Shown one piece after another: positions 13,867 through 60,102 of a stretch of 64,000 nt of DNA. The translations under genes and the position numbers were made by a program. Position 1 is the stretch's first letter; every line of letters starts with the position of its first letter. The stretch is from Candidatus Sabulitectum sp. (GTDB lineage: Bacteria; Fermentibacterota; Fermentibacteria; Fermentibacterales; JCC-6), in assembly GCA_023139045.1 (NCBI GenBank), contig JAGLOJ010000044.1, positions 23,274-87,273 of the forward strand, in the 5' to 3' direction. Below the pieces are notes generated by a model. It worked only from the letters and a program-made list of their open reading frames with translations. It was not told where the DNA came from and ran no database searches.

Positions 13867-14245
13867 TGGAGATCAAAATTGTGCAACCCCTTCTTTCCTT
13901 GAAATCCTCCATGCGTTCGGGCCATTCAACCAGCACAACCGCATCTGATTCCAGAATCTCTTCAAATCCAAGCATAAGCATTTCTTCTCTGTAACCTTCC
14001 AGCCTGTAAAGATCCATGTGATGAACCTCCAGCCCCATCCCTGCAATACTATACACAGAATCCATAATAAAGGTCGGGCTGGGTATGGCACCTTTGACAC
14101 CGAGAGAACGGATGAATGCCCTGGCAAATGTTGATTTCCCAGCCCCAAGCGGACCTGAAAGAAAATACCTGTCGCCAGGTCTCACCGACCTGGCAAGTTC
14201 CCGAGCCAGTTTCTCAAGACCGGAGACGTCAAGTTTTTTCATCAT
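13808..14245 (-). CDS. tsaE: tRNA t6A ATPase TsaE (YjeE)
   Basis: P-loop FLSGPLGAGKSTFARAF. Size is 145 aa. Confidence 0.85.
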   Translation of the reverse strand: MMKKLDVSGLEKLARELARSVRPGDRYFLSGPLGAGKSTFARAFIRSLGVKGAIPSPTFIMDSVYSIAGMGLEVHHMDLYRLEGYREEMLMLGFEEILESDAVVLVEWPERMEDFKERRGCTILISNGDSPDSRRVQVEWNLAGY

Positions 14246-15804
14246 CCTCTATACTTCTTGGGTCTGAGTACCTCACAAGGTACAAGCATTTCCTCCAGGG
14301 AAACTCCACCATGCTGAAACGATCCCTTGAATTTGTACATATCTTCCCTGTTGAAACCATTCTGCATTAACAGGTAATCCTCTCTGGCAAACAGGTAAGT
14401 CTTCCTGGGGTTATCATCAGGAAGACCCCAGTCTGCGGGATTATTTACAACAATGGAATGTTTGGGATCTGCACTCAGAGAATGGCCGAACCTGTACCTG
14501 ACACTGTGCGACATTCCCCTGGCACCACGGACGGTGGTTATTCTGTTGGCCTGGGTTGAACCGTGATCACTTGTAACAATAATCGTCGCTCCGCGGGCAC
14601 TCAGGGTTTTTATCATCTCGAAAAGGAATGAGTGTTCAAACCATCCCTCTGCCAATCTTCTGAATGCTGAAACATCCGGTGCAATGTCTCTAATCAGATC
14701 CAGTTCCGACCTGCCATGGGTGAGGTGGTCAATAAAGTTCACCACTATGGCCATGAAGCCGTCTCTGAGAAAATGAGAAAGGCCGCGCTTCACATTCTCC
14801 CCTTCCTGGCGGGTAGACACTTTTGCGTAAACAACATCTTTGCCTGTCCGCCATCCAAGACGGCCAAGGGCGTCTCCAAGGAGTAACTGTTCGTAGGAGT
14901 TAAGCCCGGGACAGCCGTACTCTTCGATCCAGCGAGTTCTGTAAAATCTCCAGATATCTCTTGGAACCAACCCGCTGAAAATAGAGTTACGGCTGTATGG
15001 AGTTGCCGATGGAAGCCCGGCAACCATGAAACCCGGCTCGCGGTGATACCAGCGCTCTATGGACCTGGCCATGAGCAGCCACTGATCATGTCTCATGCAG
15101 TCAACAACAAGAAAAACTACCTCGTCTGTTCCCCTGAGAAGCTCGGGAACAACTTTTCTTCCAAGAACGTTGTGTGCCATAAGCGGAGCTGATTCAGGTG
15201 AGGCCAGCCAGTTGGGGTAGTTCTTTTCAATGAACCGGGAGAATCCCATTTCAACCTGATCCAGTCCTCCACCCTGAATTCCATGCAATTTCTGCTCAAG
15301 CTCTCCACCGAGGCTGATATCCTTTTCCATCCATGAATGATAGAGGTGGGTCCAGTCGGAAAGGCTGTTATCTCTGTTGTGGCGAATCTTTTCTGTTTCC
15401 GAAACAACCTCTATTGCTGCCTTGTTCACCTTCAGCTTACCGGACTCCAGCAGTCTCTTCAACACAAGAAGTATCTGACTGGGGTTAACCGGTTTGGTGA
15501 GGAAATCCGCAATAGTCCCAGCTAGAGCCTTATCCATCAATTCTTCTTCCTCGCTCTGGGTAACCATAACCACAGGCAGATCTTTGTAGCTTTTGCGTAT
15601 CTCATGAACGGTCTCAAGACCGTCCATACCCACCATCATCTGATCCATGAGAACCAGATCCACTCGTATGCTCCTGAGAATATCAAGAGCCTCCCGCCCG
15701 CTGCTGGCCGGGATAACCTCGTAGTTCCTTTTTCTCAGAAAACGAATATGAGCCTGTAGATGATCTATTTCATCATCAACCCACAGTATTGTTATCACTA
15801 TCAC
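14242..15804 (-). CDS. PorX-like response regulator: a CheY-like receiver domain fused to a PglZ / alkaline-phosphatase-superfamily domain
   Basis: The N-terminal receiver has ILWVDDE and the conserved Asp. The C-terminal region has the alkaline-phosphatase-superfamily metal-site motif TSDHGS. This is the same architecture as Porphyromonas PorX. The gene overlaps the histidine kinase gene. Confidence 0.75.
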   Translation of the reverse strand: MIVITILWVDDEIDHLQAHIRFLRKRNYEVIPASSGREALDILRSIRVDLVLMDQMMVGMDGLETVHEIRKSYKDLPVVMVTQSEEEELMDKALAGTIADFLTKPVNPSQILLVLKRLLESGKLKVNKAAIEVVSETEKIRHNRDNSLSDWTHLYHSWMEKDISLGGELEQKLHGIQGGGLDQVEMGFSRFIEKNYPNWLASPESAPLMAHNVLGRKVVPELLRGTDEVVFLVVDCMRHDQWLLMARSIERWYHREPGFMVAGLPSATPYSRNSIFSGLVPRDIWRFYRTRWIEEYGCPGLNSYEQLLLGDALGRLGWRTGKDVVYAKVSTRQEGENVKRGLSHFLRDGFMAIVVNFIDHLTHGRSELDLIRDIAPDVSAFRRLAEGWFEHSFLFEMIKTLSARGATIIVTSDHGSTQANRITTVRGARGMSHSVRYRFGHSLSADPKHSIVVNNPADWGLPDDNPRKTYLFAREDYLLMQNGFNREDMYKFKGSFQHGGVSLEEMLVPCEVLRPKKYRG

Positions 15805-17165
15805 TCCCCCCCTTCCAGAGGAAGAAGTATGCTGAAGATTGTGCCACGGTCAGGGGTACTTGAAAGCAGCCGGATAGAACCATTGTGGTATTCCTCGATT
15901 ATTCGCCTGGCGAGAGAGAGACCAAGACCCCATCCGCCTTCCCTGGTAGTAAAACCGGCCTGGAATATTCTACCCTGGGCGCCGTAAGGTATTCCACACC
16001 CGTTGTCAGAAATCCTGATTTCTATCTCTGTTGCTGCTGAATGGGCATACTCACAACTGACAGTTACTTTGCCTCCATCAGAACTGCCGGCGCAGGAAGC
16101 AACTGCGTTCTTTATCAGATTTTCAAGAACCCATCCAATCAACACCGAACTGCCATTAACAATGTGTTCCTCTGAACTCTGCTCAAATACAAGAACCACG
16201 CCACCTCCGAGAACACCTTTTCTTGCATTGAAATAGTCTACGATGTCAGAAACCGTACTTTCAATACTTATCGGTTTAAGCTTGGGTCGTCTTCCCATCT
16301 GACCATATCGCTGAGCAATACTGTTGAGTCTGTTCACATCGGCATCCATGTGCTCAAGCGCATCGCTGAGATCCGGAATGTCAGAAAGCTCCGGATCATC
16401 CTTCAACAATTCGATCCAGCCCATAAGCGAGGAAAGCGGGGTGCTTATCTGATGGGCAGTCTCCCTGGCAAATCCCACCCAGGACATGTCCTTGTCTCTG
16501 GAAATTTCTGCGCGAAGGAAGACGAACACAACAGCAGCAATGAGAAGAAGCAACCCAAGCTCAAGAAAAGGAATAAACCTCATCTCCGTATTCAATGGAG
16601 ATGTACCATAGAAAAGATGTCCAATGGTGTCTCCTCTTGCTATTATTGGAATCGCCTCATTCTCCTCCGCAAGGGCAACCATTTTCTTTCGGAACTCCGC
16701 TATCCCGTCGGTGGAAAAATCATCAATAACTTGGCCGTCAACTATCTGGGGAACATTGTTCTCGTCAGCAAAAATTGTGGGAAAGTCCAATCTGTTCACC
16801 AGATCCCCAAAAAGTCTTCTGGTAAAATCAATTGCCTCTACCCTCTCCTGCGGAAGAAGACGCACGGTATGAATGAAACGAGTTGTATCAGCACAGACCA
16901 GGCAGAAAAGAGATTCGCTCTCCAAAGAAAGATCCAACCTCTCACTGGGATGACCGCACTCTGTACATGACATAATTCCTGATTCATCTCCAACAATACT
17001 CAAAGGATATTGAACTCCTGCCCAGAGCCATGCGATTGTCTCACAATCCTTTCTGTTGGATTGATTCAACCTGTTTGCAAGATCGTGTGTATACCATAAA
17101 AACAGCCAGATTGTGATACTTGCAAACAGAAAAAAAGCTATTCGTCTTCTGAAAGTGTTATGCAT
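15801..17165 (-). CDS. PorY-like sensor histidine kinase
   Basis: Two TM helices flank a periplasmic loop. The H-box is ETAHQISTPLSS. The HATPase_c domain has the N, G1 and G2 boxes (DNGCGIP, GWGLGLS). Confidence 0.75.
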   Translation of the reverse strand: MHNTFRRRIAFFLFASITIWLFLWYTHDLANRLNQSNRKDCETIAWLWAGVQYPLSIVGDESGIMSCTECGHPSERLDLSLESESLFCLVCADTTRFIHTVRLLPQERVEAIDFTRRLFGDLVNRLDFPTIFADENNVPQIVDGQVIDDFSTDGIAEFRKKMVALAEENEAIPIIARGDTIGHLFYGTSPLNTEMRFIPFLELGLLLLIAAVVFVFLRAEISRDKDMSWVGFARETAHQISTPLSSLMGWIELLKDDPELSDIPDLSDALEHMDADVNRLNSIAQRYGQMGRRPKLKPISIESTVSDIVDYFNARKGVLGGGVVLVFEQSSEEHIVNGSSVLIGWVLENLIKNAVASCAGSSDGGKVTVSCEYAHSAATEIEIRISDNGCGIPYGAQGRIFQAGFTTREGGWGLGLSLARRIIEEYHNGSIRLLSSTPDRGTIFSILLPLEGGE

Positions 17166-18254: not shown

Positions 18255-20165
18255 ATGTGGAGGTTCAACATGAATTTCAGGAAGGGATTCTCCCCCTTTG
18301 TCATTTTTCTGCTTATTCTGCTGGTATTCACCGCAGGTATTGCCCTTGCAAGAGCAGGGGGCGGTCAGAGCTACGGAGGAAGCAGTTCAAGATCATCCAA
18401 CGGAGGTGGTGATGGACTTGGAATCCTGATCTATTTCCTTCTCCGCCTTTGCATTGAACAGCCAGCTATCGGAATCCCACTTGTGATAGTAATTATAGTG
18501 GTCTCTATCGGCGTTAAAAAGAAGAGGCTCAAAAAGCAGTACAGTACTATTCAGAGGGCAGGCAACAGGAATCTTAATCAGTCACAAGACTCAGTCGCAA
18601 CTCAGACTGCTCTTGCAAACATCAAACAGAGAGACCCTCAGTTTACAGCAGCAGCTCTGATCAAGAAAGCCGACGCTGCTTTTCTGGAGATACAGAAGGC
18701 CTGGTCTGACCAGAACCTTTCAAAGGTGAGAAGATTCATCAGCGACGGAGTAAATGAGAGATTCTCTCTGCAGATCGACATGCAGAAAAAGCAGGGTATC
18801 AGAAACGAAATGGAAGATGTCCAGATTCTGGGTACAGAGATAACCTCGATTGAAAGTGATTCGCACTTCGATTCAATACATCTGAAGATCACAGCCAGGG
18901 CCAAAGACACCGATGTAGATATTGTAACAGGCCGAAAGATCAGAGATAACTTCTCCGGCACTTTTGTGGAATACTGGAGTTTCCTAAGAAAACCAGGCGT
19001 TCAGACTCTTGCCGGTAAGGGTCTTGTTGAAGGCGTCTGCCCCAACTGCGGAGCACATCTTGAACTTTCTGATTCCGGCAAATGCCTGTACTGTGATGCT
19101 GTTATTACCAGTGGAGAGTATGACTGGGTGCTCAGCGAGATAACACAGTCCATCGAATGGAGTACTGCAGCAAATCCCTCGGCAGTTCCAGGATACACTC
19201 AAATGTTGGAGATTGATCCCGGCTTCAACCTTCAGACTATTGAAGATACGGCTTCCGTTATCTTCTGGAGATACATCAAGAGTTACTTTGACAACAGCGC
19301 TGACCCGGTAAGAAAAATGGCCACTGAAGGCTATTCGGATTCCCTCGCAAAAAGCCTGGGAAATGTCCGGGATGACAAGTCCCACCTTTTCTTCGCTGAC
19401 GCGGCTGTTGGTGCCGTTGAAGTCCAGACCATTGCTCAAAGCGCAGATTTCGACCGGATTCAGGTGCTGGTCAAGTGGTCTGCGGCAAACCGGTGGATCG
19501 ACCATACCGGTAAAGCGAAGGGCGGCGGGCCCAAAACCATAAGACCTCAGATTTTCACGCTACTCAGGAAACATGGAGTAGCCACCCTTGCAGCCACTCA
19601 ACTTAACAGTGCTCACTGCCCCGGGTGCGGAGCCCCTTATACCGGAGGTGACAGCGGGTCCTGCGAATACTGCGGCAGACCCCTGAATGACGGCAGCGGA
19701 GCATGGGTTCTCGAATCGATTGGGCCATTCAGCTCTGCACGAATCAACTCCGCAGGAGTGTCTCCAGTAGCAGGCACTTCAAATGTCTCTCCCGACATTC
19801 TTCTCATGGCCATGGCAAGCACAATGTATGCAGATGGAGTACTGGACGACAAGGAAATGGATATGCTCAGCTCCTTTGCAAGTCACAGAGGCATTTCGTC
19901 AGAACATCTTTCCGCAATTATTGCTTCGATCACTCAGCCGGACGCACAACTACCCCGACCGGCCAACACAGCCGAGGCAATGGAAGTTCTCAAGGCAATG
20001 GTGAGAATGTCTCTCGCTGATGGCAGAATCGACGATTCTGAAAAAGCACTTCTGCAAAACTATGCAGCTAGTGCCGGTCTGTCTAAATATGAGGTTTCCT
20101 CCACCATAGCCAAACAGAGAAGATATCTGTACAGGGAGGCAAAGAAAGCCACTAAGGCAAAATGA
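18255..20165 (+). CDS. Multi-domain membrane protein: an N-terminal TM and Gly/Ser-rich linker, a Tim44-like domain, two CxxC...CxxC zinc ribbons, and a C-terminal TerB/DjlA-N-like domain
   Basis: The TM-GS-TM N-terminus followed by the ANIKQRDPQF...WSDQNLSKVR segment is typical of bacterial Tim44-like proteins. There are two ribbons: CPNCG...CLYCD and CPGCG...CEYCG. The C-terminal ADGVLDDKEM...LADGRIDDSEKALL resembles the TerB repeat. Confidence 0.5.
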   Translation: MWRFNMNFRKGFSPFVIFLLILLVFTAGIALARAGGGQSYGGSSSRSSNGGGDGLGILIYFLLRLCIEQPAIGIPLVIVIIVVSIGVKKKRLKKQYSTIQRAGNRNLNQSQDSVATQTALANIKQRDPQFTAAALIKKADAAFLEIQKAWSDQNLSKVRRFISDGVNERFSLQIDMQKKQGIRNEMEDVQILGTEITSIESDSHFDSIHLKITARAKDTDVDIVTGRKIRDNFSGTFVEYWSFLRKPGVQTLAGKGLVEGVCPNCGAHLELSDSGKCLYCDAVITSGEYDWVLSEITQSIEWSTAANPSAVPGYTQMLEIDPGFNLQTIEDTASVIFWRYIKSYFDNSADPVRKMATEGYSDSLAKSLGNVRDDKSHLFFADAAVGAVEVQTIAQSADFDRIQVLVKWSAANRWIDHTGKAKGGGPKTIRPQIFTLLRKHGVATLAATQLNSAHCPGCGAPYTGGDSGSCEYCGRPLNDGSGAWVLESIGPFSSARINSAGVSPVAGTSNVSPDILLMAMASTMYADGVLDDKEMDMLSSFASHRGISSEHLSAIIASITQPDAQLPRPANTAEAMEVLKAMVRMSLADGRIDDSEKALLQNYAASAGLSKYEVSSTIAKQRRYLYREAKKATKAK

Positions 20166-20683
20166 AGCTGATAACCGACAAAGCACACTACAGCAGCATT
20201 GTTGAAGATGGTATGCTCAGGGCACAAAGCAGAATATGGATCGCGACAGCCAATGTAAAAGATCTGCACATTCCAGGGGGAAGGCATCGCAGTCTTCCCC
20301 TGCTTAATCACTTCGAAAAACTGCAGAGAAAAGGTGTGAATATCCGGATTCTTCACGGAGCAAAACCATCTTCTCCCTTTTTAAACACTCTTGCAGAACT
20401 AACAGAACTTCACCAGGGCGACGGATTTGAAATGCAGCTCTGCCCCAGAGTCCACTCCAAGATTGTCATTGTAGACAACCGTATGGCCTATACGGGCAGC
20501 GCGAATCTCACTGGTGCTGGAATCGGGGCAAAGTCAGATAAAAGAAGAAATTTTGAATGTGGAGTAATCACGGAAAACCCCAGGGAAATACAGCAGCTTG
20601 AGGAATACTTTGACAGCATCTGGATTGGCTTATTCTGCAAAGCCTGCGGCAGAAGAGATATCTGTACCAGCCCTGTGATCTAG
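20162..20683 (+). CDS. Phospholipase D (HKD) family nuclease, Nuc-like
   Basis: The HKD motif HSKIVIVDNRMAYTGSANLT fits HxK(x4)D(x6)GSxN. Size of 173 aa is like Nuc. The start overlaps the preceding stop as ATGA. Confidence 0.8.
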   Translation: MKLITDKAHYSSIVEDGMLRAQSRIWIATANVKDLHIPGGRHRSLPLLNHFEKLQRKGVNIRILHGAKPSSPFLNTLAELTELHQGDGFEMQLCPRVHSKIVIVDNRMAYTGSANLTGAGIGAKSDKRRNFECGVITENPREIQQLEEYFDSIWIGLFCKACGRRDICTSPVI

Positions 20684-20805
20684 CCTGTATTTCGGATTTA
20701 TCTATATTCTTAACATTTTGTTTGTGGCTCTGTTGTCTATCAGAGTAACAAGAAATAATTTGTGCTATTTTTAGCAATACTATGCATTTTTCTTTAAGAT
20801 TTCCG

Positions 20806-21408
20806 CTATTCCAAAACCATAAGCATTCTCTCGATTAACCTGTACACAGTCGTTGTACCTATTTTTCGAGGCCAATCTGCGCATTGAGGTTTGTCTCTGC
20901 TCTTCGCCCTAAGTATTGCCTTTTCGATCATCTCACTGGAAAACTGATTTTTTCTAATTTTTTTATTGTATTCGGGTAAGCGCTTCTTTAAACGATTAGA
21001 GCAGTTGTTGGAGCTGGAAATCCTTTTCCCGTCCTCGAAATGCAGAAGGAGCCAGAGTTCGAATTTGAGATTGCTTAATGCAAACCCATAATTCTCTTTT
21101 TCAAGAGACCATTCATAAAGTTCAGCCAAATGTTCATCGCTCCAGTTGTCTTTATCCACAACCAGCCAAGCTTCATCGGATTTCCGTAACGCCTCCCGAA
21201 CAAGATGGTCCCTCATTTTCTTAAGCACCTGTTTGGGAGAGCTGTGTTTACTCCTTAGGCATTTGATACAAAGAGCCGAAGTTTCTCTATCAAACAAGCC
21301 AAAATATTGAGGTTCCGTTACAGCTCCCTCAACAGCAATCACGAATAGTTTTCTGTATCTTCTTTCTCCTAAAGCGCGTCTAAACTTTCTTCTCTTCAAA
21401 GCGATCAA
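20806..21408 (-). CDS. RloB-like (Toprim/OLD-family) protein, the AbiLii-like partner
   Basis: The N-terminal motif [14 protein letters not shown] matches the RloB CEGEKTEPNYF signature. Size is 200 aa. It overlaps the upstream AAA_21 ATPase gene. Confidence 0.65.
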
Positions 21409-22733
21409 CCGTTCTTCACACTTTTTAAAGAAACGAATTGATTCGTCGATAGATGGGGAACTCCTCTCATTCTACCCTGAAGATAGCTCTTTCGAATGTC
21501 TTTATCATAGCGAACATCTTTATATTCACCAAAGGATATTAGACTGGAAACGCCAGATGGATCTCTCTCTGTAACCCACATCTCATCCCGCCGAAACAGT
21601 TGTTGATCCATTAGAAGCAAATCATGGGTAGTCACCACCAACTGCATTCTGCTCTCCTGGTTACAATTTGCCAGGTATACCTCAAGTAGTCTCGTTGTTA
21701 ACTGGGAGTGGAGACTGCGATCCAACTCGTCTATCAAATAAATCCTTTCTGAACTTTGTGATGCAAGATCCAGAAATGCAGGGAGCAGATCAATCAAACG
21801 CTGCGATCCGTCAGATTCCTGATATATCTCAAACCTGACTTCAGTGCCGTCAGACTTACGGTGGTAAGCAACCAATCTTTTTGCAATCAGATTGCCATTC
21901 TTACGCTGAACTATATAGCGCTCATTCATTGAGGAGACTATCCTTACTGCAATTCCCTCCTGAAGATCTTTTTGAAGATTTACTTTCATGCTTTCTGGAA
22001 AAGGAAGGCTTTCAAAAGAGACATCTTCCCCTGCCAGACGAATAATTCCAGTATCAAGCTCTGGGAGTAGATTATTCATGATTGCATAGAGTGGATTACT
22101 TTCATCCAGGAATTGTTCAAACGGTTCAAATCTCGAATCCGGTGCAATTAGTACAAGATTCTTTTTAAACCAGTCATAAATTGGCCGGAAAGTATCAACA
22201 TTCTGAGATACGGAGTTTGTCAGAAACAACTGATTCTCACGTGTTCCCTCGTTGACAAAAAAGAGAGTACGATCATCTGCCATTGAATTACTAAACTTCA
22301 TAGAATCAACTGTACGGTTAAAGAGCACACTTTCGCTAGTACTATTTATTTTTGTAAGTTTCTCCTCAAGAACTTTCTTTCTTGTTACGGTGAAACAGTA
22401 TTCATAAACAGTGTCGTTTATGAGAAGTTCAAACTCAAAACGGGAGGGACGCTCACTGGTAAATGAATCCAATCTGAAGGTCTCAACTGGAATCAGACTA
22501 TCAGGCTGAATTCCCCTGACAATCAGATCTTTTGCAAAATTGATCGCCTTAAAAAAACAAGTCTTTCCAGAAGCGTTACCACCATAAATTGCAGCAACGG
22601 GAAGAATCCTTATGGGGTACTTGTTTACCCTTGAAACACGCTCTCCATGCTGACGCTCTCTGCTGGCAATCATAGAAAAAGAAACACGATCACGGAATGA
22701 CATCCAGTTCTCAACAGAAAATGAAATTAACAT
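21405..22733 (-). CDS. AAA_21-family ATPase, the AbiLi/RloA-like partner
   Basis: Walker A motif [16 protein letters not shown]. The C-terminus has [11 protein letters not shown]...[12 protein letters not shown]...VVTTHD, which are the Walker B and D-loop of SMC-like AAA_21 ATPases. It is paired 5' of the RloB gene. Confidence 0.75.
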
Positions 22734-22890
22734 ATCAAGCTCTCCTAATGTGATTTTTTCTCATATTGCATTTGTATTATCGCATTATTGCAAAGTCGAG
22801 TCAATCCCCATGTGATTTTTTCTCTTTGCGCCATAGGGAGCCACTGTTGTGACTTCCTAAAAAGAAGAGAATTTACCCGACCCTGGCTGC

Positions 22891-23325
22891 TTAGTAGATC
22901 TGGCCCATGATGATTCCGTAAGCTTCCCCGACACCATCGAAGTGATATCTGATTTCCATTCTCCCGCTCTGTTTTGGATTGAACACCGAAGGATCAAACG
23001 CCATTATCAGAACCTTACCATTCACACAGGAGAATTTCACACTTCCGGCTTCTTTTGGATCAAAGGGGAGATGGATGATTCTCTTCCTGAATGCGTAACC
23101 CACAAGTCGCTTGTTTGATACGGCAAGGGAACCCCACAGACTCTCCCGCTTGCTGCGAATACTCCTGCCAGGTGCTTCCAGCCGGTGATACACAACAGTA
23201 ACACGAACCCTTTCAGCCGCGAAAAGAAGACCTTCATTTTCCATGAATGCACGGGTTTTAAAAGGGAGATCAAACGGTTTGAAGAAACCTGCCAGTTTCT
23301 GCTTCAGTGTACTCATTTGTGACAT
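22891..23325 (-). CDS. Hypothetical protein
   Basis: 144-aa ORF in the same AT-richer patch. No family recognised. Confidence 0.4.
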   Translation of the reverse strand: MSQMSTLKQKLAGFFKPFDLPFKTRAFMENEGLLFAAERVRVTVVYHRLEAPGRSIRSKRESLWGSLAVSNKRLVGYAFRKRIIHLPFDPKEAGSVKFSCVNGKVLIMAFDPSVFNPKQSGRMEIRYHFDGVGEAYGIIMGQIY

Positions 23326-23372
23326 CCTAACATATCTTGTGCTTTCTCTGAACCGGAAAGACGGAACTGAGG

Positions 23373-52223: not shown

Positions 52224-53576
52224 TCAATATCCAAAAGCCTGGGCCCCAGCAGGAGCATCTTCATTTCTCAGTAGCCACTTCCATGCTGGAATTATATCTA
52301 TCTTACCACTGTATGTTTCAATTGTTTCTTCATCATGAAGAGAAATGACAGTACTCTTTGAAAGCTTCAGCTCTTCCATTGCCTCACTAAGTGCCCGAAT
52401 TTCTCGATTTCGAGTTTTCAAGTTTGTTAAGTCTGCACAAACTTGGATGAGTTCAAAAACAGTGTTTGTTTCCGGATCACCTGTAATGAAATCAACTTCA
52501 TGTTTGCTGTTAGTGATATAGTAACTGATCGAGGCATCACGACGGAAGTAAAATCGTTTTCGCAGATTCAGAAAAACACAGTTTTCTAGTCTCGATCCCA
52601 GATTTGAGACTCCAGCAGATGAGACAGAAAAAGACAAACCTGGATCGATGGTGTAGATCTTCCTGGGGTTAACCTCTCTAACTCTTAAAGATCTGTTGAA
52701 TACAGAAATTGGAAACAAAAGAAAAGCGTCCTCAAAATGTGCAACAAGGTTATACAGCATTTCTTTACCTACTGAGATTCCTCTTGATTTGAAATCGTAA
52801 AAAACTCTATTAACTGAAAACAAGGAACCAGAGTTTTGCAGAAGCATTCGGGCGAAAGATCTAACTGCATTGATATTCTTTATTGAGTACCGCTCAATAA
52901 TGTCTCTTACTAAAACCAGCTCAACATAATCCTGTAAAACTTGATTTCTTTGATAATCATTCATTGATTGAATCCCTGGAAAACCACCCTGGTCAAGATA
53001 CTTCTTGAATAGATCCTCCATATCAAAAACTGTTTTACCCGGAGGATATTCTGGTGGCAGTTCTATTTCATGGAAAAGCAGGAATTCTTCAAAACTCAAC
53101 GGAAACAGCTCCCTTGCAAATCCCCTTCCTCTGAATTCAGTTGCCACTTCTGTAGAAAGCAATTTTGCTGAAGAACCTGTAACATAAAGACTGGCACTGG
53201 GATTATCCGTTATCCTCCGGGCGAATCGACTCCATCCTGAAATACTCTGAATCTCATCTAAAAACAGATGAAAGCTTCCCTCCCTGGCTTGTGGACTAAT
53301 CCGAAAGAAAGCATCCAGCAGATCTGACAGAATCCCAGATCCGTATGGATGTAATCTGTCGTCTTCAAGATTCAAGTATAAAATCGTTGAAGGATCCACT
53401 CCTTCTGAAATCAGTTTGTTTATGTGTTGAAACAATCGAAAAGTTTTACCTGTTCGCCTCATTCCAATAATAACCGAGGCCATGCCAGCCACTGGACTGA
53501 TATCCAAAATGCGAGGCCTGAGATCAGGAATCGGCCGAAACAACGAATCTGCTACGAATTGTTCTATGTGATTCAC
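52224..53576 (-). CDS. AAA-family ATPase with a DUF4143-type C-terminal domain (COG1373), a divergent paralog
   Basis: P-loop GMRRTGKTFRLFQ and Walker B HLFLDEIQ. Size is 450 aa. Confidence 0.7.
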   Translation of the reverse strand: MNHIEQFVADSLFRPIPDLRPRILDISPVAGMASVIIGMRRTGKTFRLFQHINKLISEGVDPSTILYLNLEDDRLHPYGSGILSDLLDAFFRISPQAREGSFHLFLDEIQSISGWSRFARRITDNPSASLYVTGSSAKLLSTEVATEFRGRGFARELFPLSFEEFLLFHEIELPPEYPPGKTVFDMEDLFKKYLDQGGFPGIQSMNDYQRNQVLQDYVELVLVRDIIERYSIKNINAVRSFARMLLQNSGSLFSVNRVFYDFKSRGISVGKEMLYNLVAHFEDAFLLFPISVFNRSLRVREVNPRKIYTIDPGLSFSVSSAGVSNLGSRLENCVFLNLRKRFYFRRDASISYYITNSKHEVDFITGDPETNTVFELIQVCADLTNLKTRNREIRALSEAMEELKLSKSTVISLHDEETIETYSGKIDIIPAWKWLLRNEDAPAGAQAFGY

Positions 53577-59007: not shown

Positions 59008-60102
59008 TTGCCAGTCAAAACCCGTTCAGAAGCGCTATTATTAACAGTAATTATCTCAATGCTCTGTATGCTGGCATGCGATTCAGCGACCGAAATGAGT
59101 GTTGTGGAACAAAGGCATCTTGTAGTTGTTGATTCAATTGGATCACTGTATGGGAATGATTATGAAATGTTCGGAAATATAAATGGTGCTTATTTTGTTG
59201 ATGATTCTACATTCGTTGTCCTGGACAAGGGGTACAATGAGTTGCGTGTTTTTGATAGAGAATGCAATTTCATAAAGACTGTTAATTGTCAAGGAAATGG
59301 TCCTTGGGAGTGTCAGGATGCAGCATATTTGTCTTCACTTGACAATACTATAGCTGTATTTGAATTTCTCATGCCACCAAGAGCTGTATTTTTTGATAGT
59401 GCAGTTAATCCCAAACGCTCAGTTGTTCTATCTGGATACACTGCTTTAATGGAACCATCGTTAGTGGATTCATTAACAATCATTGGGAGTGTCGGAAGTT
59501 TTTCAGAACAAAATGGGAATCAATTCGCCGGTATTGATGTGTGCTCTTGGAGCACAATAACAGGTGAAAAGTTATGTGAATATTTCTCAAATTCGATTCA
59601 AATAGATTCTAGAGAAGGTTTATACAGTAGACTGGTCAGCTTAGAACTCACTATTGCTGCATCAAGTAGCGGTTATGTATACGTAGCCCCAAGTAAGAAT
59701 GATTACAAGATTCTTATATACTCATCAGAAGGAATGTTGATAGATTCAATTTATCAAACTCACGAACGCGCAATGCGAAGTCAGGAGGAGATACTAGCAG
59801 AGTGGGAGTGGCGAAAATTGAGAGATATTCATTTGGGAGATTGGATACCATCTGAATACGAACTTGAGGTTACGCAACTTCAAGTTCAAGATTCATTAAA
59901 GTACTTGTGGGTCAGTCATGGATCATATTTCAATCCATCATTTGATGTATTTAACCTACTTGGTGATTTAGAATTTACATGTACTGTTGAAGGATTGCCA
60001 GAAAATGAGATTATTCGATTTGGAATAAATGACAATGGCATATTGGCGTACACTGATTACTGTGCTACTTATCCAAGATTGTATATCCTGGAATTTCGAT
60101 AG
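59008..60102 (+). CDS. Beta-propeller-like lipoprotein paralog. The gene is visibly AT-richer than the rest of the window.
   Basis: Lipobox MLAC. The motif YFVDDSTFVVLDKGYNELRVFDRECNFIKTV follows the NHL-like blade pattern. Confidence 0.55.
   Translation: MPVKTRSEALLLTVIISMLCMLACDSATEMSVVEQRHLVVVDSIGSLYGNDYEMFGNINGAYFVDDSTFVVLDKGYNELRVFDRECNFIKTVNCQGNGPWECQDAAYLSSLDNTIAVFEFLMPPRAVFFDSAVNPKRSVVLSGYTALMEPSLVDSLTIIGSVGSFSEQNGNQFAGIDVCSWSTITGEKLCEYFSNSIQIDSREGLYSRLVSLELTIAASSSGYVYVAPSKNDYKILIYSSEGMLIDSIYQTHERAMRSQEEILAEWEWRKLRDIHLGDWIPSEYELEVTQLQVQDSLKYLWVSHGSYFNPSFDVFNLLGDLEFTCTVEGLPENEIIRFGINDNGILAYTDYCATYPRLYILEFR

Follow-up and report, generated by a model that had tools for sequence, protein, structure and literature searches.

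An acquired AbiL-type ATPase-RloB cassette between core genes of a Candidatus Sabulitectum genome

How does a two-gene module resembling an abortive-infection system come to lie among the housekeeping genes of a poorly known bacterium, and what might it do there? The question is raised by a stretch of 64,000 nt from Candidatus Sabulitectum sp. (assembly GCA_023139045.1, contig JAGLOJ010000044.1, positions 23,274 to 87,273), here called the window, in which an earlier note, made from the sequence letters, had described an AbiL-like pair of an ATPase gene and a RloB/Toprim gene within a low-GC islet. Both the observation and its interpretation proved essentially correct. The element at 20684-22890 is read here, at a probability of about 0.75 that takes in the proposed mechanism, as an acquired, self-contained AbiL defence cassette that would comprise its own promoter region, the abiLi ATPase gene, and a translationally coupled gene, abiLii, for a metal-dependent RloB nuclease. 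The families of abiLi and abiLii, their intact motifs, the operon structure, and the mobility of the cassette are established here.

The gene pair and its insertion site

The minus strand of the window carries an open reading frame (ORF) of 442 aa (21405-22733, starting with ATG), followed by one of 200 aa (20806-21408, with TTG as its first possible start), both of the size and at the place given by the earlier note. The first, abiLi, encodes an ABC-type (AAA_21) ATPase, matched by the PADLOC model PDLC02335 AbiLi over residues 1-434 (3.7e-77) and by Pfam AAA_21 (3.4e-36). The second, abiLii, encodes a putative Toprim-like nuclease of the RloB family; its product matches the Pfam RloB profile (PF13707) along its whole length (2.5e-34; profile positions 1-195 of 195; 119.6 bits, against a gathering score of 31.5) and a single PADLOC model, AbiLii (8.1e-23). 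The PADLOC and Pfam libraries thus agree on the AbiLi/AbiLii architecture that had been proposed; NCBIfam gave no model for either protein. Records of both proteins exist at NCBI, from the Candidatus Sabulitectum sp. metagenome-assembled genome (MAG) GCA_030634765.1 (contig DAOWAD010000001.1), annotated as “ATP-binding protein” (AbiLi) and “RloB domain-containing protein” (AbiLii), and the AbiLi of the window is identical to the NCBI protein of a Candidatus Sabulitectum MAG. The host has not been cultured and is represented by GCA_030634765.1 alone.

All motifs quoted for the two proteins were recovered, together with several others. AbiLi contains, on the minus strand, a Walker A motif GGNASGKT (residues 51-58; 22560-22583), a Q-loop-like NQLFLTN (22215-22235), a signature-like SDGSQR (21798-21815), a Walker B/D-loop IYLIDELD (residues 331-338; 21720-21743), and an H-loop TTHD (residues 368-371; 21621-21632). 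Across 49 ATPase homologues, the residues of Walker A, SDGSQR, Walker B/D-loop, and H-loop vary little or not at all, and the window protein has them all. AbiLii, encoded on the same strand, begins with a basic N-terminal tail (residues 1-20; 21349-21408), followed by VEGAVTE (residues 26-32; 21313-21333), which includes E27 and E32, by a DxD motif, VVDKD (21148-21162), and by a motif containing E117 (21034-21063). Among 65 diverse RloB proteins, taken from the representatives of clusters at 50% identity, E27, G28, E32, Y35, D85, and E117 are invariant and D87 is nearly so; AbiLii retains every conserved residue, and both proteins are full length in comparison with their homologues.

The two genes form one operon, being co-oriented, with the ATPase first, and overlapping or abutting at 21405-21408. 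This gene order, as well as a TGATG junction between the genes, recurs in homologous cassettes. A Shine-Dalgarno sequence, AGGAG (22742-22746), precedes the ATG of abiLi by 8 nt.

The inserted cassette as a whole, to which no strand is assigned, measures 2207 nt (20684-22890) and fills the space between the stop codons of two core genes, a PLD-like gene (20162-20683, plus strand) and orf144 (22891-23325, minus strand). The order LarN-like, Tim44/TerB-like, PLD-like is preserved in fifteen loci from other Fermentibacteraceae/Sabulitectum MAGs, and AbiL genes were found in none of the 15. In most of these loci the next genes are orf144, two permease genes, and a methyltransferase gene; some lack orf144 or the permeases. 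Of the 12 loci with orf144, 11 have its stop codon 4-20 nt from that of the PLD-like gene, the one exception being locus L022, with a gap of 186 nt. Since the site is empty in 15 relatives, 20684-22890 is an insertion between two convergent core genes. This synteny is decisive, and horizontal acquisition of the cassette, as the earlier note had suggested from base composition, is confirmed by it much more strongly than by the mild GC dip.

The marked AT-richness on which that suggestion relied is real in direction but only modest in size. The operon with its flanks has a GC content of 0.408, against a window mean of 0.461 (standard deviation 0.028), and 4.6% of equal-sized stretches are as low. 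At third codon positions (GC3), abiLi is the third-lowest of 52 ORFs (z -1.8), whereas abiLii is unremarkable (z -0.4). Taken alone, these figures are weak evidence of acquisition. The islet must also be drawn shorter than the 20700-23330 first given to it, because the low-GC stretch is 20684-22890 and orf144 has a normal GC content (0.469).

Gene calls for 10 kb to each side include no integrase or transposase, in keeping with the earlier observation that none was visible. No tRNA was found near the insertion, and no terminal direct or inverted repeats of the cassette were found; its non-coding ends had no similarity to other loci. The 3' flank (20684-20805, minus strand) is AT-rich, with a GC content of 0.295, and folds weakly (z -2.0). 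A terminator scan of this flank revealed no canonical intrinsic terminator, and it had no similarity to the flanks of other cassettes.

Promoter region and operator-like sites

Upstream of abiLi, and on the same minus strand, lies a sigma-70-like promoter (22776-22804), TTGACT-17 nt-GATAAT with an extended -10 TG, which agrees with the consensus at 10 of 12 positions. It is bracketed by two exact 15-nt copies of GAGAAAAAATCACAT in the window, where chance would be expected to give 0.4 matches with up to two mismatches. The first operator-like site (22810-22824) ends 5 nt upstream of the -35 box, and the second, its exact repeat (22748-22762), is 1 nt upstream of the Shine-Dalgarno AGGAG, both on the minus strand.

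The region has no general excess of promoter-like sites, so that conservation is what counts. In the homologous upstream regions compared (loci L002, L008, and L039-L054), the core of site 1, AAnGAGAnnnnnTCnCnT, is invariant in the 12 aligned cassettes, and site 1 occupies a fixed position, -90 to -95 from the ATG, in all 14 cassettes. Most homologues have it as the palindrome TTAAMGAGAwwwwwTCTCwTTAA. In 11 of the 14 homologous cassettes a -35 box TTGAC keeps the same distance from site 1, and a second copy, comparable to site 2, stands beside the Shine-Dalgarno sequence at -28 to -31 in about 10 of the 14.

In the viral collection, the exact pattern of site plus -35 box occurred 29 times, 15 of these being situated upstream of an abiLi homologue, at about 107 nt; the remaining occurrences have no flanking features and look like chance. 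The pattern recurs upstream of abiLi, and the element thus belongs to the cassette. A role of the palindrome as a general phage-regulator operator was considered and rejected, because the exact pattern is found either beside abiLi or at seemingly chance sites.

The most natural reading of the two sites is that of an operator pair for a dimeric DNA-binding factor. The paired palindromes probably provide transcriptional control, and possibly autoregulation as in type II toxin-antitoxin operons. It is conceivable, though rather unlikely, that the AbiLi-AbiLii complex itself binds both sites, either through the Arg/Lys-rich N-terminal tail of AbiLii or through the ABC ATPase dimer. Expression of the cassette would in that case be tied to the integrity of the sensor-nuclease complex, and a toxin-antitoxin-style feedback without a canonical DNA-binding domain would be an undescribed general feature of this AbiL subfamily.

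Nuclease fold, proposed mechanism, and rival functions

The AlphaFold 2 model of AbiLii, with a predicted local distance difference test score (pLDDT) of 74, has a beta-alpha-beta core in which E27 directly follows strand 1 and D85-K-D87 ends strand 3. This placement of E27 and the DxD motif in the model fits the Toprim arrangement. HHpred relates RloB to OLD_TOPRIM (PMC10440598), and a predicted AbiLii structure superimposes on the OLD nuclease 6NJV over 123 residues (PMC13064643). A search of BFVD with the AbiLii model returned only another RloB-like protein, and hidden Markov model (HMM) searches of the AbiLi and AbiLii families found no solved relative. A homologue search with the Toprim domain of P2 Old gave four near-identical matches, and tblastn with it gave none in plasmids and, in phages, only P2 itself. 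Fold searches do not discriminate here, and the Toprim assignment therefore rests on motifs, topology, and published analyses.

Two further observations concern the RloB family itself. Besides RloB, DUF4276 was the only Pfam family matched by more than one of the diverse RloB proteins (3 members, best E 0.044). DUF4276 is another effector family that accompanies AAA_15/21 ATPases, and the weak signal may hint at a distant relationship with RloB. A family representative of 450 aa, P0342, carries the RloB N-terminal half at residues 305-432, and could be either a fusion of ATPase and RloB or the product of reading through the overlapping junction.

AbiL has been grouped with the systems that pair an ABC ATPase with a TOPRIM protein (PMC11464382; PMC13064643), and the mechanism proposed here draws on them. 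In PARIS, a hexamer of AriA keeps AriB sequestered until its release is triggered by a phage protein (bioRxiv 2024.01.02.573835), and the released AriB cleaves tRNA-Lys (PMC11464382; bioRxiv 2024.01.02.573835). P2 Old is likewise a tRNase, activated by a change of oligomeric state (bioRxiv 2026.07.10.737580), and the lactococcal AbiL acts after phage transcription (PMC13064643). By analogy with PARIS, with P2 Old, and with a validated pair of RloB-type toxin and ATPase antitoxin, an AbiLi oligomer would serve both as infection sensor and as antitoxin, keeping the AbiLii nuclease inactive. Release or activation of AbiLii would come from a phage-derived trigger combined with the binding or hydrolysis of ATP; AbiLii would then cleave host nucleic acid, halting translation and aborting the infection. 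Because both AriB and P2 Old cleave tRNA, and because the lactococcal AbiL acts after phage transcription, tRNA or another RNA would be a likelier substrate than DNA; an alternative would be cleavage of DNA, as with Gabija.

Several points weigh against reading the pair as a defence cassette that works in this way. Foldseek comparison of the AbiLii model with the PDB gave nothing below an E-value of 0.01, and hhalign alignment of the RloB profiles, both close (A1) and diverse (A4), with the P2 Old Toprim domain was not significant, so that our own searches do not confirm the putatively Toprim-like fold of AbiLii. The AlphaFold model of AbiLi is poor (pLDDT 55) and thus affords no reading of the sensor domain and no comparison with AriA. 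The trigger, the substrate, and the oligomeric state in the proposed mechanism are borrowed from other systems, and, as the authors on PARIS regard AbiL and RloAB as structurally distinct from it (bioRxiv 2024.01.02.573835), the details may differ. No recognised DNA-binding domain occurs in AbiLi or AbiLii that would explain the operator-like sites. Finally, the altered gene junction discussed below, TGATC with a degraded Shine-Dalgarno sequence, may leave the nuclease weakly expressed or the module attenuated.

The function of the pair could also be sought in the mobile elements that carry it. Relatives with 61-67% identity are found in genomes and MAGs from a wide range of phyla, among them Desulfobulbus, Methylosarcina, Planctomycetota, Nitrosomonas, and Chlamydiia, and the ATPase-RloB pair is the sole constant among their contexts. 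In one lineage the pair lies inside a prophage-like element, between a gene for a DnaG-type primase and those for an integrase and a terminase; in Methylosarcina it adjoins IS605 remnants, and at least 19 IMG/VR viral contigs carry it. The RloB family at large is abundant, with 7,495 cluster representatives (50% identity) at E-values up to 0.001 and 363 at 1e-30. The occurrence of close homologues within prophage-like and IS-associated elements would suit a module that is chiefly a toxin-antitoxin addiction system of such elements, stranded in the chromosome and with little or no anti-phage role in its host. The operator-like palindromes at the promoter, with their resemblance to type II toxin-antitoxin autoregulation, would also suit it. 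An RloB-type protein of Clostridium algidicarnis is indeed a toxin in E. coli, where its AAA ATPase neutralises it, the two acting as a toxin-antitoxin pair, and a related pair with AAA neutralisation failed to protect against phages in a coliphage screen (PMC10440598). The lactococcal AbiL, however, was defined by phage resistance, which is reported to be lost on deletion of abiLii (PMC13064643; PMC10440598), and model sets for defence systems include the family. Toxin-antitoxin behaviour and abortive infection are moreover compatible, PARIS being both (bioRxiv 2024.01.02.573835). A chiefly addictive role is regarded as improbable, and a defence cassette as the better account.

The junction of the two genes raises a different doubt, namely whether the window copy is attenuated or decaying, with an intact ATPase and a nuclease barely translated after loss of its start codon and ribosome-binding site. 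Most homologous cassettes have the stop/start overlap TGATG, whereas the window junction (21399-21410, minus strand) reads TGATC. Likewise, GGAGG precedes the junction in 9 of 10 homologous cassettes of the subfamily, where the window has GAAGAACGG. The 4-nt overlap reported by the earlier note holds, as TTGA, only if the TTG at 21408 is the start of abiLii; in the NCBI record the protein begins one codon later, at ATC, and a further TTG three codons downstream is also a candidate. The genes are therefore coupled, with the exact start of abiLii uncertain. Against a decaying copy, the abiLii frame is full length with all conserved residues intact, the upstream TTG overlaps the stop codon in a way that would permit coupled re-initiation, and the identical ATPase protein is present in another assembly of the same organism. 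Apart from the junction, nothing points to decay, and an attenuated or decaying module is considered very unlikely, less probable still than an addiction role, in comparison with a functional AbiL cassette.

Related systems and the surrounding region

PARIS (AriA/AriB) shares with the window pair the layout of an ABC ATPase gene followed by a separate gene for a small Toprim-type nuclease, and represents OLD class 4. AriA was also the second-best PADLOC model for AbiLi (1.6e-33), albeit 44 orders of magnitude weaker than the AbiLi model; because the AriA model shares both its 304 positions and its match coordinates with Pfam AAA_21, the match is generic. AriB belongs to DUF4435, and no match to DUF4435/AriB (PF14491), or to PF20469 (OLD-like_TOPRIM), was found for AbiLii or for its 57 close and 65 diverse relatives at E-values up to 10, although P2 Old itself matches PF20469 at 1.2e-17. 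The comparison of PF13707 with PF14491 that the earlier note had proposed as a means of separating the two systems thus falls on the side of RloB, which makes the system AbiL; published models agree, in that AbiLii and AriB superimpose poorly (PMC13064643). That the pair should nevertheless be PARIS is highly improbable.

No more credible is a RloA/RloB-type accessory of a type I restriction-modification (R-M) locus, as in Campylobacter, for, although the protein families (AAA ATPase and RloB PF13707) are the same and RloAB has been described inside hsd loci (PMC10440598; bioRxiv 2024.01.02.573835), no hsdR, hsdM, hsdS, or other R-M genes occur within 10 kb of the window cassette, its neighbours are core genes kept in relatives without it, and homologous cassettes elsewhere are also not beside hsd genes. 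The likeness to Campylobacter jejuni RloA/RloB, whose genes lie in type I R-M loci, is drawn here from the protein families.

Among the closest known systems is the AbiL of Lactococcus lactis (AbiLi/AbiLii; Deng et al. 1999). As tblastn of AbiLii against PLSDB gave no Lactococcus match, ORF55/56 of the Lactococcus prophage proPhi7, which carry the annotation of abortive phage resistance proteins, stand in here for the AbiL of plasmid pND861; they match the PADLOC AbiL models at 4.4e-76 and 4.7e-18. The ATPases of the proPhi7 and window pairs align with 26% identity along 96% of their length, and the small proteins with 27% along about 75%. Both are co-oriented with the ATPase first, and their small proteins share the EG, DxD, and (S)N..E.WLLLHFE motifs. 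In contrast to the lactococcal system, the window cassette is hosted by a Fermentibacterota MAG and not a Firmicute, lies in the chromosome between core genes and not in a plasmid or prophage, and belongs to a subfamily with a conserved basic AbiLii N-terminal tail and a promoter/operator architecture of its own.

The NetFlax pair TOPRIM_OLD(D44, RloB-like):AAA(D29) of Clostridium algidicarnis has the same two domains, and is likened to the window pair by these. It is the sole experimental case of RloB-type toxicity neutralised by an ATPase, a toxin-antitoxin result and not one of phage defence (PMC10440598). P2 Old and GajA of Gabija (OLD classes 1 and 2) likewise combine an AAA_15/21-type ABC ATPase with a Toprim nuclease; the VEG.(K)TE of RloB resembles LLVEGKTE of P2 Old, and DxD is present in both. 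In Old and GajA, however, ATPase and Toprim are fused in one polypeptide, whereas the window has two separate ORFs, and GajA also requires the helicase GajB.

The cassette is an ordinary, previously uncharacterised instance of the known and abundant AbiL type, which standard defence finders would call. AbiL pairs are common and both proteins already stand in NCBI as MAG annotations, so that the finding itself is of little weight. What goes beyond routine annotation is limited to the evidence of an empty site, the conserved layout of operator-like sites, and the changed junction that couples the two genes. The cassette nevertheless offers a clean minimal example, a promoter and two genes between convergent core-gene stops, without recombinase or repeats, and through it Fermentibacterota, a phylum about which little is known, gains a defence system. 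Handles on the regulation of AbiL, a family described in the 1990s, are provided by the operator-like architecture and the TGATG junction.

Among the neighbours, the plus-strand region 18255-20683 encodes a 636-aa membrane protein with Tim44-like, double zinc-ribbon, and TerB/DUF533-like domains, whose gene overlaps by 4 nt with that of the 173-aa PLD-family (Nuc/DrmC-like) protein. The Tim44/TerB-like and PLD-like pair is kept in 15 of 15 relatives and is thus core, not mobile defence; the PLD-like nuclease was rejected as a defence partner on the same ground, being translationally coupled to the Tim44/TerB-like gene and present in all relatives. Membership of orf144 in the system was rejected as well, given its conservation in relatives without AbiL and its normal GC content.

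Farther away, at 14242-17165 (minus strand), a histidine kinase gene is followed by one for a response regulator with a PglZ domain, presumably a PorX/PorY-like pair. The response regulator was dismissed as a sign of BREX, since it has a histidine kinase partner and lies among housekeeping genes.

On the other side of orf144, its junction with the permease gene (window 23326-23372) is variable in relatives (L011 12879-13994, L022 13140-14177, L012 3495-5001, L024 12841-13515). The inserts encode a DUF7309/DUF6930 protein in two MAGs, and a beta-propeller lipoprotein with a small RHH-like protein in one. As this junction is also variable, the stretch looks like a local hot spot of gene insertion.

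Elsewhere in the window, two ORFs exceed the AbiL genes in AT content and may be regarded, from their composition, as candidates for horizontal acquisition. One, at 59008-60102 (plus strand), encodes a 364-aa protein without a Pfam match (GC 0.375, GC3 0.29); the other, at 52224-53576 (minus strand), encodes a 450-aa ATPase with AAA_14 and DUF4143 domains (GC 0.40, GC3 0.34).

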